A stretch of DNA of 64,000 nt from an uncultured Gammaproteobacteria bacterium (GTDB lineage Bacteria > Patescibacteriota > Patescibacteriia > Patescibacteriales > WJLG01). The stretch covers positions 5,857 through 69,856 of the forward strand of contig CAYNAR010000003.1 of NCBI GenBank assembly GCA_964395625.1, in the 5' to 3' direction. The notes beneath the pieces were generated by a model. That model was not told the DNA's origin. It ran no database searches and saw only the letters and a list, made by a program, of their open reading frames with translations. This document shows, in pieces, positions 30,610 to 37,574 of the stretch; position 1 is the stretch's first letter; each line of letters starts with the position of its first letter. A program made the translations under genes and the position numbers.

Positions 30610-33273
30610 ATGATTGAATCACATTCTTTGTCGGTAAAAGCTTGCCTAAAGGAGCTTAAGACTTCCGAAAAAGGATTGTCTTTAAAGGAAGCCTTTTCGC
30701 GTTTCGAAAAGAATGGGCCGAACGATATAGTAATAGAGAAGAAAATCTCTAAATGGAAAATATTTTTTAAGCAATTCCAAAGCCCTTTTATATATATACT
30801 GCTGTTTGCCGGCACTACGTCGTTACTGCTTAATGAAATAGCCAACGCCACCGTTATACTATCGGCAGTTGGGTTGAATGCCCTCGTAGGCTTTTTTCAG
30901 GAGAACAAGGCCAACGACTCCTTGAAGAAGTTGCGTGATTTGGTTAGACATCAAGCGATAGTGTTTCGTGGCGACAGAGAGAGAAAGATAGACGCTCGCC
31001 AAGTCGTGGTCGGAGATATCGTTATGATAGAGGTAGGATCACGTCTCCCCGCCGACGGTCGTCTGATAGAGTCCGCGGAATTATCGATAAACGAATCTTC
31101 CTTAACGGGGGAGTCCTATCCTTCGAAAAAGACGATTGATAAGCTCTCTCCGGGGACAGCTTTGCCGGATAGGAAAAATATGGTGTATGCCGGCACCGTG
31201 GCCGTTTCCGGTCGCGGTAGAGCGGTTATAACCGCCACCGGTAAAAATACGGAAGTCGGTAAAATATCCCGTCTTTTGGATATTCAGGAGGAATCCACCC
31301 CATTGCAAGAGAAGATAGAGGGTTTGGCTAAATTTCTAGCCACTATCTTTCTGTCTATTTGCGCGCTGGTTTTCGCAATAGGAGTATTTGAGGGGCGCGG
31401 TGTCTATGAAATGTTCTTGGTGGCCGTCGCCTTGGCTGTTTCCGCCATTCCCGAAGGACTTTTGATATCCATGTCTTTTATTTTGGTCATAGGCATGCAG
31501 AGACTCTTGAAGGTGAGCGCTTTGGCCAGAAAACTAGTCTCTGCCGAGACTTTAGGCTCCACCACCGTTATTTGTTCCGATAAGACCGGTACTTTAACCG
31601 AGGGGCGAATGGAAGTATCTCATATAATAATCGGCGAGAACGAATTCGAGGAGGATAATCCCGGCTCGCGCCAAGAGATGGGCGAGGCTAAAATGGTTCT
31701 ATTGGCTTTGCAGATCGGGGCGATGTGCAATAACGCGATAGTCGATAATCCGGAAGATTCTCTTAAAGAATGGGTTTTTTCGGGCACGCCGACGGAAGAA
31801 GCATTGCTTAAAGCGGCCTATGAGGCCGGAATAGATCGTTTCGAGCTTGAAAAGAAAGAGAAGCGCTTGGTCGAGAAGCAGTTCGATAGTGCGACGAAGT
31901 TCATGGCTACTATCAATAGCAGAGATAGCGGTTTTGTTATGTATGAAAAAGGCGCTCCGGAAATCGTTCTTGAAAAATCCAAGATTTTTTATCACAAAGG
32001 CGCCTTTACTCAATTGAAAGATTCAAATAGGCGTTCTATCGTCAAGAATTTCGAGAAAATGACTTCTTTGGGGTTTCGGTTGATAGCCGTGGCCTATAAA
32101 GATTTATCGTTGGACGACTTGAACAAATCTTCCACTCCTGATTGGGGTTCCCTTGATAGGGATTTGACTTTTGTAGGACTGATAGCCCTAAGAGATCCTT
32201 TGCGTTCCGATGCGAAAGACACTATCAGGGCTACTAAGGAAGCTGGAATAAGGCCAGTCATAATAACCGGTGATCATAGTCTTATAGCTGTCGCCATAGG
32301 TAAGGAGATCGGTTTAGAGATCGATAAAAAGACGATCGTTTCAGGTGATGAGTTGGACAAAATGGATGATAAGGAGCTCAAGAGGCGTTGCGCCAAGATA
32401 AATGTCTATGCCAGGGTCAGTCCGCACCACAAATTAAGAATAGTGAACGCACTGCGAGCGCGAGGAGAGGTTGTGGCGATGGCGGGTGATGGCGTCAATG
32501 ATGCGCCGGCGCTTAAAGTCGCCGATGTTGGAATCGCTCTTGGTAACGGTTCAGATGTCGCCAAAGAGGCTTCGGACATAATTCTGTTGAATAATAATTT
32601 CAAAGTTATTGTATTGGCGGTTGAAGAGGGGAGAAGGATATTGTCCAATTTGCGTCGCGTGGTGACATATCTGACATCCGATTCTTTTTGCGAGATAGTT
32701 TTGATTACCGGGTCGATATTGATCGGTGCCCCTTTGCCTCTTCTGCCGGTCCATATATTATGGCTAAATATCATACATGATGGAATGCCGAATTTCGCTC
32801 TATCCTTCGAGAAGACGACGAAGAAGATGATGAAGAGAAAACCGGACAAACGTTCCGCTTCCTTACTTACTCCAGAGATGAAGGCTATAATTTTCTTTGT
32901 AGGAATGGTGATTAATGTTGTTATCTTTGCCTTTTTCTTCTGGATGTATCGTCTTGGCGTGGCCATAGAATATCTAAGAACTTTAGTCTTCGGCATACTG
33001 GGCGTCAAATCTCTGCTCGCCATCTTTTCCTTAAGGTCTTTATCTCGCCCTATTTGGTTAATGAATCCTTTCGGCAACCCATATCTTTGGGCAGCCGTCG
33101 GGGTTAGTACTTTCTTGTTCTTATCGGCGATATATTGGGTTCCTTTGCAAATCCTTTTAAGTACTGTGCCATTGCATGCTAAGGATTGGTTGATAATCTT
33201 CTTCTTCTCTTTGATTAATCTTTTATTGATAGAGGGAGTTAAAGTGTTTTATTCTCTAAAGGTTAAAAAATAA
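30610..33273 (+). CDS. P-type cation-transporting ATPase, P2 (Ca2+/Mg2+, SERCA/PMCA-like).
   Basis: 'ICSDKTGTLT' phosphorylation site, 'TGES', 'ITGDH', 'MAGDGVNDAPALK', an N-terminal Cation_ATPase_N-like segment and 10 predicted TMs. Confidence 0.93.
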   Translation: MIESHSLSVKACLKELKTSEKGLSLKEAFSRFEKNGPNDIVIEKKISKWKIFFKQFQSPFIYILLFAGTTSLLLNEIANATVILSAVGLNALVGFFQENKANDSLKKLRDLVRHQAIVFRGDRERKIDARQVVVGDIVMIEVGSRLPADGRLIESAELSINESSLTGESYPSKKTIDKLSPGTALPDRKNMVYAGTVAVSGRGRAVITATGKNTEVGKISRLLDIQEESTPLQEKIEGLAKFLATIFLSICALVFAIGVFEGRGVYEMFLVAVALAVSAIPEGLLISMSFILVIGMQRLLKVSALARKLVSAETLGSTTVICSDKTGTLTEGRMEVSHIIIGENEFEEDNPGSRQEMGEAKMVLLALQIGAMCNNAIVDNPEDSLKEWVFSGTPTEEALLKAAYEAGIDRFELEKKEKRLVEKQFDSATKFMATINSRDSGFVMYEKGAPEIVLEKSKIFYHKGAFTQLKDSNRRSIVKNFEKMTSLGFRLIAVAYKDLSLDDLNKSSTPDWGSLDRDLTFVGLIALRDPLRSDAKDTIRATKEAGIRPVIITGDHSLIAVAIGKEIGLEIDKKTIVSGDELDKMDDKELKRRCAKINVYARVSPHHKLRIVNALRARGEVVAMAGDGVNDAPALKVADVGIALGNGSDVAKEASDIILLNNNFKVIVLAVEEGRRILSNLRRVVTYLTSDSFCEIVLITGSILIGAPLPLLPVHILWLNIIHDGMPNFALSFEKTTKKMMKRKPDKRSASLLTPEMKAIIFFVGMVINVVIFAFFFWMYRLGVAIEYLRTLVFGILGVKSLLAIFSLRSLSRPIWLMNPFGNPYLWAAVGVSTFLFLSAIYWVPLQILLSTVPLHAKDWLIIFFFSLINLLLIEGVKVFYSLKVKK

Positions 33274-33275
33274 AA

Positions 33276-33680
33276 ATGTGGAAAGAGAAAAGAAAAAAGA
33301 ATATCGTATCCGCCTTTTTGTCTAGTCCTTTGTTTTTATCTTTCGTCCTCTTGGGCCTTCTGGCAGCAATAGGTTTCCCTTTGTATGGGAATATTTCGAA
33401 CCGTTATCGGATAGATAACGAGATCGGCGATTTAAAAAAAGAGATCGAAGATTTGGAGGCCGGTAATAGTGATTTAAAGAAGCTACTTTCTTATCTGAAG
33501 TCCGAGCAATTCGCCGAAACCGAGGCGAGGATGAATTTTGGTCTTAAAAAAAGCGGCGAGGAAGTGGTTGTCATAAAAGAGGATGATCAAATGATCGAAA
33601 GTGGTGTTGCCGAAGAGTCCGAAGACGAGGAAGAATCATCTTTATCTAAATGGCTGAGATATTTTTGGGGTAAAAAATAA
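33276..33680 (+). CDS. Septum formation initiator family protein (FtsB/DivIC-like).
   Basis: Single TM 'LFLSFVLLGLLAAIGFPLY' followed by coiled coil 'IGDLKKEIEDLEAGNSDLKKLLSYLKS..F.E.EAR..(F)GL.K.GE.V'. Confidence 0.8.
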   Translation: MWKEKRKKNIVSAFLSSPLFLSFVLLGLLAAIGFPLYGNISNRYRIDNEIGDLKKEIEDLEAGNSDLKKLLSYLKSEQFAETEARMNFGLKKSGEEVVVIKEDDQMIESGVAEESEDEEESSLSKWLRYFWGKK

Positions 33681-33710
33681 AGAACGGATTGATCCGTTCT
33701 TTATTTTTTT
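33679..33710. terminator. Bidirectional rho-independent terminator.
   Basis: agaacgga-ttga-tccgttct flanked by an A-run on the left and a T-run on the right. It serves the + strand ftsB-like gene and the - strand tRNA-Thr/structured-RNA transcript. Confidence 0.8.
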
Positions 33711-33729
33711 GAGCCGAAAGTGGGATTTG
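33708..33729. repeat. Direct repeat (22 nt, tttgagccgaaagtgggatttg) of the tRNA-Thr 3' end. The second copy is at 33865-33886.
   Basis: Exact 22-mer at both positions. A partial inverted copy (caaatcccac) is at 33823-33832. Confidence 0.85.
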
Positions 33730-33856
33730 GTCACAACTCTCGTCGGCTTCCGCCTTCTCGGTCGCGACCCCAGCTCGCGGTTCTCGGCGCCAAAATTGCG
33801 CCTCGAACATCGCTCCGCTTTTCAAATCCCACATTGAGCCAAGAAGTTGGCTCAAT
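33711..33856 (-). ncRNA. Candidate structured RNA or palindromic insertion element of unknown class, GC-rich, lying between tRNA-Thr and the terminator.
   Basis: Minus-strand RNA features, in order: a 5' hairpin GAGCCA-ACUUCU-UGGCUC; a 10-bp closing helix GUGGGAUUUG/CAAAUCCCAC; GCGG/CCGC; a hairpin UUCGAGGCGC-AAUUUUG-GCGCCGAGAA with tandem G.A/A.G; and a hairpin GGUCGCGAC..GGC-GGAA-GCC..GUUGUGACC with a GNRA loop. The core is much more GC-rich than its surroundings. Confidence 0.45.
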
Positions 33857-33868
33857 TTATATAATTTG

Positions 33869-33940
33869 AGCCGAAAGTGGGATTTGAACCCACAACCTAC
33901 GGTTTACGATACCGTTGCTCTACCGTTGAGCTATTTCGGC
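33869..33940 (-). tRNA. tRNA-Thr (anticodon CGU).
   Basis: Hand-folded cloverleaf: GCCGAAA/UUUCGGC acceptor, U8A9, D stem GCUC/GAGC with GG, anticodon stem ACGGU/ACCGU, loop AU-CGU-AA, T arm GUGGG-UUCAAAU-CCCAC, discriminator U. CCA is not encoded. Confidence 0.9.
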
Positions 33941-33990
33941 TAACTTGGTATTATTAAATTATCATATAAGCTCACATAAAATCAAGTTTC

Positions 33991-35706
33991 ATGATCATTA
34001 ATAAAAAACTTTTTGTTTATCCTGTTTTTTTAGCTATTTTTTCTTTATCCTGCTGTGCCAATAATGCTTTGGCCGTCGACGGGATAGTTTTCGACGAATC
34101 AAGCCCGGCATCCTCTTCGATGTCTTCTTTTTCGTTTTCGACTAGTACGGAGGTGATCTCTGAGCCTGTTTCTACTCCGATCAATGAAAAATATTCCATA
34201 GAGTTGGATAAGGGGACTATAGCTAAGGGGTATACCGTGGCTCCGTTCGACGGTTCGTTGAAGCTTTCCTTGGTCCCTGGGATATTGTCTTCTTCAACCA
34301 GAGTGGACGCCGAGATATTGAATGAGAATATCGAATCTCCTTGGCGGTTCGATCGTTTGAGTCCCGTCTATCAATTCGAATTTCGCAACAAGGCCTCTTA
34401 CGACAATCACAAGCCTTTCTACATACAGATTTCTTACGATAAGGAGGACAATGGATTGAAGAAGGTTTTTTTCTACGACAAGACCGTGGGGGCTTGGCGC
34501 GAATTGCCGACGATCGATTTTCCGAAAGAGAAATTCGTTCGTTCTTTAATACACTTACCTTTCGCTCGCGTCGCTGTATTCACGGATAAAAGTGTCATGG
34601 GGAACGGTAAGGCTAGCTGGTATGCCTACAAGGGTGGTGACTTCACTGCTTCCACTTTCTTTCCCAAAGGATCCAAACTTCGTGTCTATAATTTGGCCAA
34701 CGGTAAATATGTCGATGTAGTAGTCAATGACTATGGCCCGGAAAGGAAGTTGCACCCCGATCGCGTAGTCGATTTGGATAAAGTCGCCTTTTCCAAGATA
34801 GCATCGATAAGGGACGGTATTATAGATGTCAAAGTGGAACCACTTTCGATCGTCCCTGATTCGCGCGGTTTTGTGATGGGCGTAGCTAAAAACGGCAAGG
34901 CTACGGTGTTGCCGGAGACGACTTCTCGGTCATTGGCTATTTTCGACGAGAAATCAGGAAGCTTTATTTATGAAAAGAATGCCTCCTCGTCTTTGCCGAT
35001 TGCCAGTTTGACGAAGTTAGTCGCTGCCAAGGTCTTTTTTGATCAAAATCCTGACTTGACCCGCGTGGTCGAATACAAGAAACAGGACGAGGATTTTAAT
35101 GCCACTTATTCCGATCCTGAAAGGAACGCCAAACTTAACGTCAAGGATGGTGAGACTATGACGATAGAGGATTTGGTCTATTCGGCCTTGGTTGGATCGG
35201 CGAATAATGCCGTCGAGTCCCTAGTTCGCGTCAGTGGTATCGCAAGAGACGATTTTATCGGCAAGATGAATGATTTTGCGGTATCCGTCGGTGCCTTAGG
35301 CACTAAATTCATCGAGCCGACCGGCTTGGCTTTTCAGAATGTGAGTACGGCCAAGGACTATGCTATAATGATAAAAGAAGTATTGGCCAATCCGGTTATT
35401 CAAAAGATAAGCACGACACCTAAGTACACTTTTAACACTATCAATACAAAAAAGCCACATACTCTCTATAATACTAATGCTTTTTTGCGAGAAGGACTAT
35501 TTGCCTTGGAGAATCGATTGAGCATAGTCGGTTCGAAGACCGGTTTTCTGGATGAAGCAAGTTATTGTTTGGCTACTAGTGTTTCCGGTCCTTCCGGTGA
35601 GAGGTTGACAGTGGTCAATTTGGGTGCAGCTACCAAAAACGACAGTTTTGAAGAAGTCAAAGAGCTGATAAGATACGGTCTTAAAAAAATTTCCGCCAAT
35701 GATTAA
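33991..35706 (+). CDS. Fusion protein with a signal peptide, an unknown N-terminal domain, an RlpA-like double-psi beta-barrel and a D-alanyl-D-alanine carboxypeptidase (S11, PBP5-like).
   Basis: RlpA/DPBB: 'GKASWYAYKGGDFTASTFFPKGSKLRVYNLANGKYVDVVVNDYGP...RVVDLDKVAFSKIA'. S11 motifs: SxxK 'IASLTKL', SxN 'GSANNA', KTG 'GSKTGF'. Confidence 0.85.
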   Translation: MIINKKLFVYPVFLAIFSLSCCANNALAVDGIVFDESSPASSSMSSFSFSTSTEVISEPVSTPINEKYSIELDKGTIAKGYTVAPFDGSLKLSLVPGILSSSTRVDAEILNENIESPWRFDRLSPVYQFEFRNKASYDNHKPFYIQISYDKEDNGLKKVFFYDKTVGAWRELPTIDFPKEKFVRSLIHLPFARVAVFTDKSVMGNGKASWYAYKGGDFTASTFFPKGSKLRVYNLANGKYVDVVVNDYGPERKLHPDRVVDLDKVAFSKIASIRDGIIDVKVEPLSIVPDSRGFVMGVAKNGKATVLPETTSRSLAIFDEKSGSFIYEKNASSSLPIASLTKLVAAKVFFDQNPDLTRVVEYKKQDEDFNATYSDPERNAKLNVKDGETMTIEDLVYSALVGSANNAVESLVRVSGIARDDFIGKMNDFAVSVGALGTKFIEPTGLAFQNVSTAKDYAIMIKEVLANPVIQKISTTPKYTFNTINTKKPHTLYNTNAFLREGLFALENRLSIVGSKTGFLDEASYCLATSVSGPSGERLTVVNLGAATKNDSFEEVKELIRYGLKKISAND

Positions 35707-37449: not shown

Positions 37450-37520
37450 TGGGAAGTCGTCCAATGGTAGGACAGCGGCCTTTGAAGCCGTTTATCATGG
37501 TTCGAATCCATGCTTCCCAG
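37450..37520 (+). tRNA. tRNA-Gln (anticodon UUG).
   Basis: Hand-folded: U1-A72 acceptor UGGGAAG/CUUCCCA, D arm GUCC-AAUGGUA-GGAC, anticodon stem GCGGC/GCCGU, loop CU-UUG-AA, T arm CAUGG-UUCGAAU-CCAUG, discriminator G (bacterial Gln identity features). Confidence 0.9.
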
Positions 37521-37574
37521 CATTACGCTACGCCCAGTAGGGGTAAATCCATGCTTTGTCGGCATATAACAAGA

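Follow-up and report, generated by a model that had tools for sequence, protein, structure and literature searches.

What occupies the space between a threonine transfer RNA gene (tRNA-Thr) and its terminator in an uncultivated bacterium of the Patescibacteria (Candidate Phyla Radiation, CPR)? The locus lies on a 64-kb chromosomal stretch, the whole of which was analyzed and is referred to here as the window. An original prediction, made from the letters of the window, offered two readings of the structured segment found there: a co-transcribed novel small RNA, or a miniature element that inserted at the tRNA 3′ end and left an att-like duplication. The two are not alternatives; the evidence supports parts of the insertion and parts of the structured RNA. 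The explanation developed here, which in its full form we hold at about even chances, is that of a non-autonomous insertion element whose structured, non-coding core is conserved, and which was probably placed at the T-loop of the tRNA by trans-acting site-specific recombination and is transcribed as a trailer of the tRNA.

A duplicated tRNA end encloses the element

The tRNA-Thr gene (anticodon CGU; 33868–33940, minus strand) was recovered at the predicted place by both ARAGORN and the Rfam tRNA model (73.7 bits), with calls ending at 33868/9 and no encoded CCA. Its 3′ end is present twice, as had been claimed. The proximal copy (CAAATCCCACTTTCGGCTCAAA; 33865–33886, minus strand, attL-like) and the distal copy (33708–33729, minus strand, attR-like) are identical at 22/22 nt. 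The repeat begins inside the T-loop (CAAAT) and consists of the last 19 nt of the tRNA plus 3 nt of trailer, so that the proximal copy spans the 3′ part of the T-loop, the 3′ strand of the T-stem, the 3′ strand of the acceptor stem, the discriminator, and the 3 additional nt. In two related loci described below (L006 and L004), the direct repeat from the T-loop to the 3′ end is 19 nt long. The copies are separated by 135 nt (157 nt from start to start), which makes the earlier size estimate of ~145 nt about right.

Read along the minus strand, the interval between the tail copies consists of an AT-rich linker, a hairpin (P0), an inverted copy of the T-loop and T-stem, and a GC-rich core. The inverted copy (GTGGGATTTGAA, the complement of TTCAAATCCCAC; 33821–33832, minus strand) is 12 nt long, within the 10–12 nt originally proposed, and supplies the 5′ strand of the closing helix, P1, while the first 10 nt of the distal copy supply its 3′ strand. 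With its flanks included, the inverted copy (33821–33835) can pair with 33874–33888 (15 nt, 93%) and with 33717–33729 (13 nt, 92%). Terminal inverted repeats of the kind by which miniature inverted-repeat transposable elements (MITEs) are recognized are present (GTGGGATTTG pairs with CAAATCCCAC), and both are copied from the adjacent tRNA.

Filled and empty loci in relatives

Orthologous loci of relatives were reached through homologues of the proteins encoded on either side, a PBP-like protein (called PBP here) and a DivIC-family protein. The site was empty in eight lineages (L010/L011, L023, L053/L054/L082, L056/L057, L058/L059, L060, L061), where the terminator directly follows the tRNA, and was filled in L006 (the same as L007, L008, L012, L030, and L044), which bears the same element as the window. 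In L006, the flank beyond the distal copy (AGACACATCCAACATC) matches the post-tRNA flank of the empty locus L010 (CAACACATCCAACATC), and the two are orthologous. Because of this match, the element together with one tail copy is extra DNA, and the unoccupied site with a continuous flank is preserved among the relatives. At every locus, filled or empty, a terminator follows the last copy of the tRNA end.

A different arrangement was found in L004 (1850–2045, minus strand), the sister lineage of the window (PBP identity 81%), in which the same brackets (GGGATTTGAA and AAATCCCACTTTCGGCTCA) surround an unrelated 134-nt ‘type B’ core, the core of the window and L006 being type A. The type B core includes a perfect 11-bp hairpin and folds 7.5 kcal/mol better on the sense strand than on the antisense strand (−52.9 and −45.4 kcal/mol, respectively); it has no match in Rfam and is not matched by a covariance model of type A. 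The lineages nearest to L006 are L010 (85%) and L060 (83%), both empty. Because the L004 core is unrelated and the nearest relatives of L006 are empty, the element is patchy rather than monophyletic and has swapped its cargo at least once. The originally suggested insertion, targeted to the tRNA 3′ end and leaving an att-like duplication, is thus upheld by clean empty sites, an orthologous flank, a different core in the sister lineage, and a patchy distribution. An apparent filled/empty polymorphism seen in L002, L003, and L044 was rejected, as these contigs end inside the element.

Structure and conservation of the core

The GC content of the core (0.55–0.59) stands out from that of its surroundings (0.19–0.45), in line with the GC-rich core in an AT-rich context described initially. 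The predicted fold of the 171-nt region (−69.3 kcal/mol, z = −5.8) was equaled by none of 200 shuffled sequences. It contains the P0 hairpin (ATTGAGCCAA-CTTC-TTGGCTCAAT; 33833–33856, minus strand), a perfect 10-bp stem whose arms repeat the GGCTCAA/TTGAGCC motif of the acceptor end; the P2 domain (33772–33819, minus strand), built from AGC/GCU, GCG/CGC, UUC/GAA, a tandem G.A, GGCGC/GCGCC, and a 7-nt loop; and the P3 domain (33729–33769, minus strand), in which GGUCGCGACC pairs with GUUGUGACC (with two G.U pairs) below an internal loop and GGC-GGAA-GCC. The helices that had been proposed reappear in the computed structure: the 10-bp closing helix as a P1 of 9–10 bp, the hairpin with tandem G.A mismatches as UUC-GA-GGCGC/GCGCC-GA-GAA, and the long helix ending in a 3-bp, GGAA-capped hairpin as a 10-bp helix, an internal loop, and GGC-GGAA-GCC. 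P3 is predicted to stack on the helix formed by the inverted copy and the tail (10–15 nt).

The fold has a strand bias. The 113-nt core reaches −54.6 kcal/mol (z = −6.5) on the sense strand against −38.8 kcal/mol (z = −3.2) on the antisense strand, and in both the window and L006 the tRNA-sense strand is the more stable by 14–16 kcal/mol. The GGAA loop (of the GNRA type), the tandem G.A, and the G.U pairs exist on the sense strand only.

Comparison of the window with L006 indicates that the core is conserved despite saturation at neutral sites. In the neighboring genes, four-fold degenerate sites are 34–49% identical and the terminators cannot be aligned, whereas the 113-nt core is identical at 103/113 positions (91%). 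Across P0 and the core (137 nt) there are 15 substitutions, and both sides have changed in four predicted pairs (P ~5e-4 for random placement), three of which are still Watson-Crick (U-A to C-G twice and A-U to U-A once); P0 has two compensatory pairs. A covariation shuffle test on the two real sequences by themselves was not significant (81/500), a level that two sequences cannot reach in any case. The base pairs of the core are under selection, as the wider family described next also demonstrates.

A wider family with brackets that follow the tRNA tail

When 1.84 billion representatives were searched in full with HMMER, the query being a 69-amino-acid (aa) open reading frame (ORF) that overlies the element, seven short orphan ‘proteins’ (52–154 aa, 52–76% identity) and one low-complexity false match were returned. 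What they translate is, in all seven cases, the core of the element (..GAM.EAQFRR..PR.GVATEEAEADESCD..), and they align collinearly with the window. Covariation in this peptide-inferred family was scored only on bases that are forced by the amino acids (alignment A3, 137-column numbering). Seventeen pair cells had changed on both sides and could still pair, compared to 1–9 when the registers were slid by 1–6 columns and 3.1 ± 2.1 with random partners, of which 0/2000 reached 17. Within P2, pair 39–84 turns from G-C to C-G in three members and pair 51–75 occurs as U-A, C-G, and G-C. P3 is nearly invariant, with 96/98 cells lacking a forced change, and with its GNRA loop, conserved G.U pairs, and purine-rich internal loop this hairpin looks like a putative binding site for a protein or another RNA.

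The brackets vary among family members and do so together. The peptides translated over the distal copy are QIPLSAQ (window and P0141), RVLTGAQ (P0139), QVLSRA (P0143), RILSSPH, RAPFTPQ, and RIPPFPQ. Two members contain their tail peptide a second time, at a distance of 159 nt in P0139 and 198 nt in P0143, a tRNA-tail duplication with other tail sequences. The inverted copy covaries with the direct copy: in P0138, ATTTG/CAAAT has become ATTCG/CGAAT, and in P0143 every position of GAGGACTTG/CAAGTCCTC that can be determined is complementary. We assign the element to a previously undescribed family, whose members are conserved, structured, and associated with the 3′ ends of tRNAs. The homologues and covariation to which the original prediction had looked for support were found in the L006 copy, in the seven family translations, and in compensatory changes above the controls; its question of whether other tRNA genes carry the same insert has the answer of one copy in 64 kb and family members beside different tRNA-like tails. 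As a separate observation, the tail peptide RIPPF of P0142 (an ENA contig of 899 nt) recurs ~90 residues downstream, which suggests a third tRNA-tail copy or a second element in tandem.

Searches for genes, known families, and further copies

The 69-aa ORF itself (33646–33855, minus strand) overlies the element and the terminator and is spurious, as was suspected from the start. No Pfam family matches it, changes between the window and L006 are predominantly non-synonymous whichever frame is read, and its ‘homologues’ are only orphan ORFs over the same element, which start and stop at unrelated places and in one case change frame. Nothing marks the core as a fragment of a coding gene, a possibility that would have undone the earlier claim: it has neither a family match nor a codon-like pattern of substitution. 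Remnants of genes or of a parent integrative and conjugative element (ICE), integrative and mobilizable element (IME), or prophage were found in no frame.

Novelty relative to Rfam was assessed with the scan that had been recommended. Searches of Rfam 15 with the window, L004, L006, and L043, at the gathering threshold and at E ≤ 10, returned tRNA only; the best non-tRNA match over the element was SpF25 (26.7 bits compared to a cut-off of 48 bits), driven by the terminator, and the element fits no Rfam family. Among mobile DNA, blastn of the element gave nothing in phages and only chance matches in plasmids, tblastn of the core peptide gave no matches in phages or plasmids, and a viral contig collection searched with the tRNA tail, two type A patterns, one type B pattern, and the peptide profile yielded only chance matches to GC-rich phages. 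In genome and metagenome collections, the 18-nt tRNA tail occurred as two copies in the L006 lineage only, the rest being single tRNAs or chance matches, and within the fetched loci the type A covariance model had no matches beyond the copies already known from the window strain and the L006 lineage. A word-indexed search with a concatenated six-frame ‘protein’ of types A and B found no match at E ≤ 10, a failure of sensitivity, because the full HMMER search later found relatives.

Several known RNA classes were considered and set aside: hammerhead and other small ribozymes (unfit junction sequences, no Rfam match); the kink-turn (K-turn; a tandem G.A without the 3-nt bulge); a hairpin like that of the signal recognition particle (no Rfam match); and retron non-coding RNA, the bridge RNA of the insertion sequence (IS) IS110, and IS200/IS605 (no adjacent reverse transcriptase or transposase, and none of these gives a 19–22-nt duplication).

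Transcription layout

On the tRNA-sense strand of the region, the only promoter-like site lies upstream of the tRNA (TTGATT-16-GATAAT; 33958–33985, minus strand), where it matches the consensus in a region conserved in relatives, and the only terminator lies after the distal copy. The terminator is a bidirectional, intrinsic terminator-like palindrome (33672–33709, both strands) of 18 perfect bp with A and T runs on both sides, as had been noted, and is common to the tRNA unit on the minus strand and the DivIC-family gene on the plus strand. Because neither a promoter nor a terminator separates the tRNA from the element, the element is very probably transcribed as the 3′ trailer of tRNA-Thr. 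The small-RNA half of the original prediction accordingly holds in part: a conserved structured element without a promoter of its own does lie between the tRNA and the sole terminator, while its co-transcription is read from the layout.

Discussion

Proposed origin of the element

The element would have entered by site-specific recombination with the crossover in the T-loop, the ‘class II’ sublocation within tRNA genes. Recombination of this kind, acting in trans, is the most likely route because the repeat runs from the T-loop to the gene end as in T-loop-class integrases, whose T-stem arms flank a 7-bp overlap and for which the Ms6 core measures 26 bp (PMC1762012). The recombinase would have to act in trans because the element encodes none. 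Fragments of tRNA genes are the usual footprints of integration (PMC9897764), and decayed elements that retain attL and attR are known as cis-mobilizable elements (CIMEs; PMC5704250). Att-like scars elsewhere, at tRNA-Gln in the window and at a tRNA-Pro in L049 (both described below), are counted in favor of this origin. On arrival, the element would have supplied a replacement tail to the tRNA and shifted the original tail 157 bp downstream, to just before the native terminator; the tRNA stays intact because the replacement tail came with the element. The element could be lost again either through reversal of that recombination or through slippage between the 19–22-nt direct repeats. The trailer RNA would be freed by tRNA 3′ processing and fold as the P0 hairpin followed by a three-way junction of P1, P2, and P3, with P1, formed by the inverted copy and the spare tail, closing the fold and stopping the spare tail from competing for the tRNA body. 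We infer the type of recombinase, the transcription and processing, and the role of P1 from these arrangements.

A number of points weigh against this account. The real nucleotide sequences of the element come from two lineages, the seven other members being reconstructed from peptides, and its transcription is deduced from the layout of promoter and terminator. The type A covariance model found no second copy in the 64-kb window. There is no integrase in the 135-nt insert, a Xer query (weak evidence) matched no ORF in the window, and no larger element with the same ends was found in viral contigs, phages, or plasmids. A duplex circle of 157 bp is very small for a tyrosine recombinase, and the patchy distribution is weaker as proof of a recombinase because slippage could give precise loss. 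The inverted copy also complements the T-arm of the tRNA itself (12–15 nt) better than it does the distal copy (10 nt). In the minimum-energy fold of the whole precursor (33708–33940), it is the distal tail that completes the body of the tRNA, leaving the proximal T-loop and T-stem to pair with the inverted copy, and in all three filled loci (window, L006, and L004) this alternative is 3.4–4.2 kcal/mol better than a cloverleaf with a closed element. Because it is lower in energy, the clamping of a spare tail is not the sole reading of P1. The alternative fold may be irrelevant, since the tRNA folds ahead of the element and makes tertiary contacts; it may, on the modeled energies, represent a switch in the precursor; and the alternative pairing of the inverted copy may have a role at the level of DNA.

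Alternative explanations

A fairly unlikely explanation is a small-RNA gene of the host, vertically inherited and fused to the tRNA-Thr unit, with a functional tail copy kept identical by selection or gene conversion, with relatives that lost the gene by slippage, and with no mobility at all. The strong conservation and covariation would suit such a gene, as would tails that differ with an inverted copy tracking them, which is what co-evolution in place would give; the 19–22-nt direct repeats 157 nt apart would ease precise deletion, and no recombinase or mobile vehicle was found. It struggles, however, with the sister lineage L004, whose core cannot be aligned while that of the more distant L006 is 91% identical, from which at least one replacement or new insertion follows; with the at least five independent losses needed in a small clade; and with a repeat boundary that falls in the T-loop, as at known att sites. 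An inert scar, in which the two arms of a large prophage or island kept attL and attR in the manner of a CIME after the interior was deleted and have no present function, is improbable. Duplicated tRNA ends are usual for integrated elements (PMC9897764), CIMEs are known (PMC5704250), and other small scars are present at tRNA-Gln (37546–37556), the L049 tRNA-Pro, the 5′ duplication of L058, and L014. Against this stand identical boundaries and collinear sequence in two non-sister lineages and seven family members, 91% identity where neutral sites are saturated, the compensatory changes, the RNA-like features of the sense strand, and the absence of gene remnants in any frame.

The DNA-level possibility has a specific form, in which the element integrates as a folded single strand: the duplex of tail and inverted copy mimics the T-arm site, P3 stacks as the other arm, and one pair of strands is exchanged in the style of CTXphi attP(+) or attC. 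The inverted attP1 and attP2 sites of CTXphi fold into such a hairpin attP(+) (PMC3442271). The order of sites in the window (hybrid site, short loop with P0, inverted copy, rest, second site) fits, by our derivation, a linearized hairpin-attP circle; of the two tail copies, the proximal one is the better match for the inverted copy; smallness and a very stable fold are suited to single-stranded DNA; and on the top strand GTTGTGAC-CAAATCCCAC is fully paired and resembles GTTGTGGGTTCAAATCCCAC of the tRNA. We nonetheless regard this as a long shot, as its case is drawn from architecture, no means by which a 157-nt single strand would be replicated or transferred is known to us, type B of L004 is without a P3-like arm, and a GNRA loop with G.U pairs is no less fitting for RNA. 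Still further down in probability, and very improbable, is a product in which the distal tail completes the tRNA body, making the element a giant T-loop insertion that is intron-like or a regulatory alternative fold of the precursor. The minimum-energy precursor fold of the three filled loci favors it, yet the energy gap is small and ignores tertiary contacts of the tRNA and co-transcriptional folding, the proximal copy already gives a perfect tRNA (73.7 bits), and to our knowledge bacteria have no splicing route for a T-loop insert. That the 69-aa ORF encodes a small protein is hardly credible: it is open in both the window and L006 and similar short ORFs occur in metagenomes, but in addition to the coding evidence given above it crosses the terminator, and conservation follows base pairs and not codons. 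A bolder and fairly unlikely proposal is an undescribed miniature mobile class: a conserved structured RNA module of ~95 nt that homes to the T-loop or 3′ end of tRNA genes, carries or copies direct and inverted images of the tail, has no genes, moves as a folded single strand (CTXphi/attC style) or via its own transcript, and is expressed from the tRNA promoter, with type B as a second cargo of the same brackets.

Comparison with known systems

Under the favored account of a trans-mobilized insertion, the closest parallels are the integrative elements of the T-loop class (class II sublocation; e.g., Ms6), in which the tRNA also stays intact and relatives have empty sites. They differ from the present element, which is devoid of genes, integrase included, spans only ~135 nt between its repeats, and has both an additional, inverted copy of the site and a core that is structured and conserved. 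CIMEs are likewise non-autonomous with att-like repeats at a tRNA 3′ end, and the core swap in L004 recalls their accretion and replacement; they have been described as decayed ICEs or IMEs (PMC5704250). The element shares with them the retention of attL- and attR-like repeats without recombination or transfer genes. CIMEs are, however, kilobase-sized remnants with gene debris, unlike this compact, conserved, non-coding family member with covariation.

The inverted, target-like sites of CTXphi attP(+) and integron attC fold into hairpins that mimic a duplex (PMC3442271, PMC4792948), and the element is similarly a small, imperfect palindrome. Here, in contrast, the target is a tRNA gene and not dif or attI, no link to Xer or IntI was found, and a single-stranded form is only hypothetical. 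MITEs that form co-transcribed RNA hairpins include Correia, ERIC, RUP, and BIME, and the element resembles them in its 100–200-bp size range, terminal inverted repeats, non-coding and intergenic nature, co-transcription as predicted here, and stable fold. Members of those families occur many times in a genome, make only short target duplications, and have a parent IS, compared to one copy in 64 kb, a 19–22-nt duplication, and inverted repeats that copy the neighboring tRNA and change with it. The 3′ external transcribed spacer of an Escherichia coli tRNA, 3′ETS-leuZ, is a short, unstructured sponge made from an ordinary spacer. It is like the element in its position between tRNA and terminator, in having no promoter of its own, and in release by tRNA 3′ processing, which for the element is proposed; the element differs in being a highly structured insertion between brackets that comes and goes as one module.

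As far as the searches show, the combination of scar size, the lack of genes, a covarying core, brackets that track the tRNA, and exchangeable cargo is new. Transfer RNA genes are classic landing pads of prophages and islands, and partial tRNA copies are usually taken as dead scars; here a scar-sized insert proves to be conserved, covarying, structured, and absent from Rfam, and recurs beside different tRNA tails in uncultivated bacteria with very small genomes. If it is an RNA expressed from the tRNA promoter, it would be a new class of small RNA in the Patescibacteria, from which almost no regulatory RNAs are known to us. If it moves as a unit, it would be the smallest kind of site-specific integrative element and a natural example of brackets adapting to the target tRNA. 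This would bear on the evolution of integration sites and on the tolerance of tRNA genes for insertions, and it might also inform the design of minimal integration cassettes.

Genomic setting and other insertions at tRNA genes

The element is flanked on one side by genes for a P-type ATPase (30610–33273) and the DivIC-family protein (33276–33680, plus strand) and on the other by the gene for PBP, an RlpA/D-Ala-D-Ala carboxypeptidase fusion (33991–35706), with the FtsE and FtsX genes on the same side as the latter. The nearest named homologues of the proteins from these genes belong to metagenome-assembled genomes of Patescibacteria and Falkowbacteria. Three Logan assemblies contain the same strain, and in these the locus is identical.

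Other small insertions and tRNA copies were observed in the window and in the fetched loci. In the window, 24 nt beyond tRNA-Gln (anticodon UUG; 37450–37521), there is an 11-nt copy of the junction of T-loop, T-stem, and acceptor of that tRNA (AATCCATGCTT; 37505–37515 = 37546–37556). A match of this kind has a chance of ~0.002 for the search used; it has no inverted copy and resembles another att-like scar of this genome in a more advanced state of decay. The tRNA-Thr locus is a hot spot for small insertions. In L058 (1946–2105, minus strand), the 3′ side is empty and the 5′ part of the same tRNA is duplicated, in the order GCCGAAATAGCTCAACGGTA, a 20-nt GC palindrome CCTGCCTGCCGGCAGGCAGG, GAGCAACGG, ~36 nt, and the intact tRNA. 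Past tRNA-Thr(UGU) of L014 (minus strand) by ~20 nt lies a partial tRNA copy, from the anticodon arm to the 3′ end, with a different T-arm and acceptor, which is either another integration footprint or a pseudo-tRNA. In L049 (2490–2640, minus strand), ~100 nt that contain a terminator separate tRNA-Pro(CGG) from an incomplete second copy, which extends from the anticodon loop to the 3′ end and has a different hairpin in place of its T-arm; this is an att-like scar of the anticodon-loop class, from a different organism. L043 (4087–4235, minus strand; Ga0233425_10000008, 652 kb) has a rod-like hairpin of ~125 nt between tRNA-Thr(UGU) and tRNA-Thr(GGU), with GC content above its surroundings, many purine-rich internal loops, and z = −5.3, with no duplication of a tRNA tail and no Rfam match. 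Lastly, between the tRNA terminator and the DivIC-family gene of L010 (2141–2330) and L011 (2195–2330) there is a tandem array of a 15-nt unit (GTTCTGATGTTCAAT), the copy number of which differs between the two samples.

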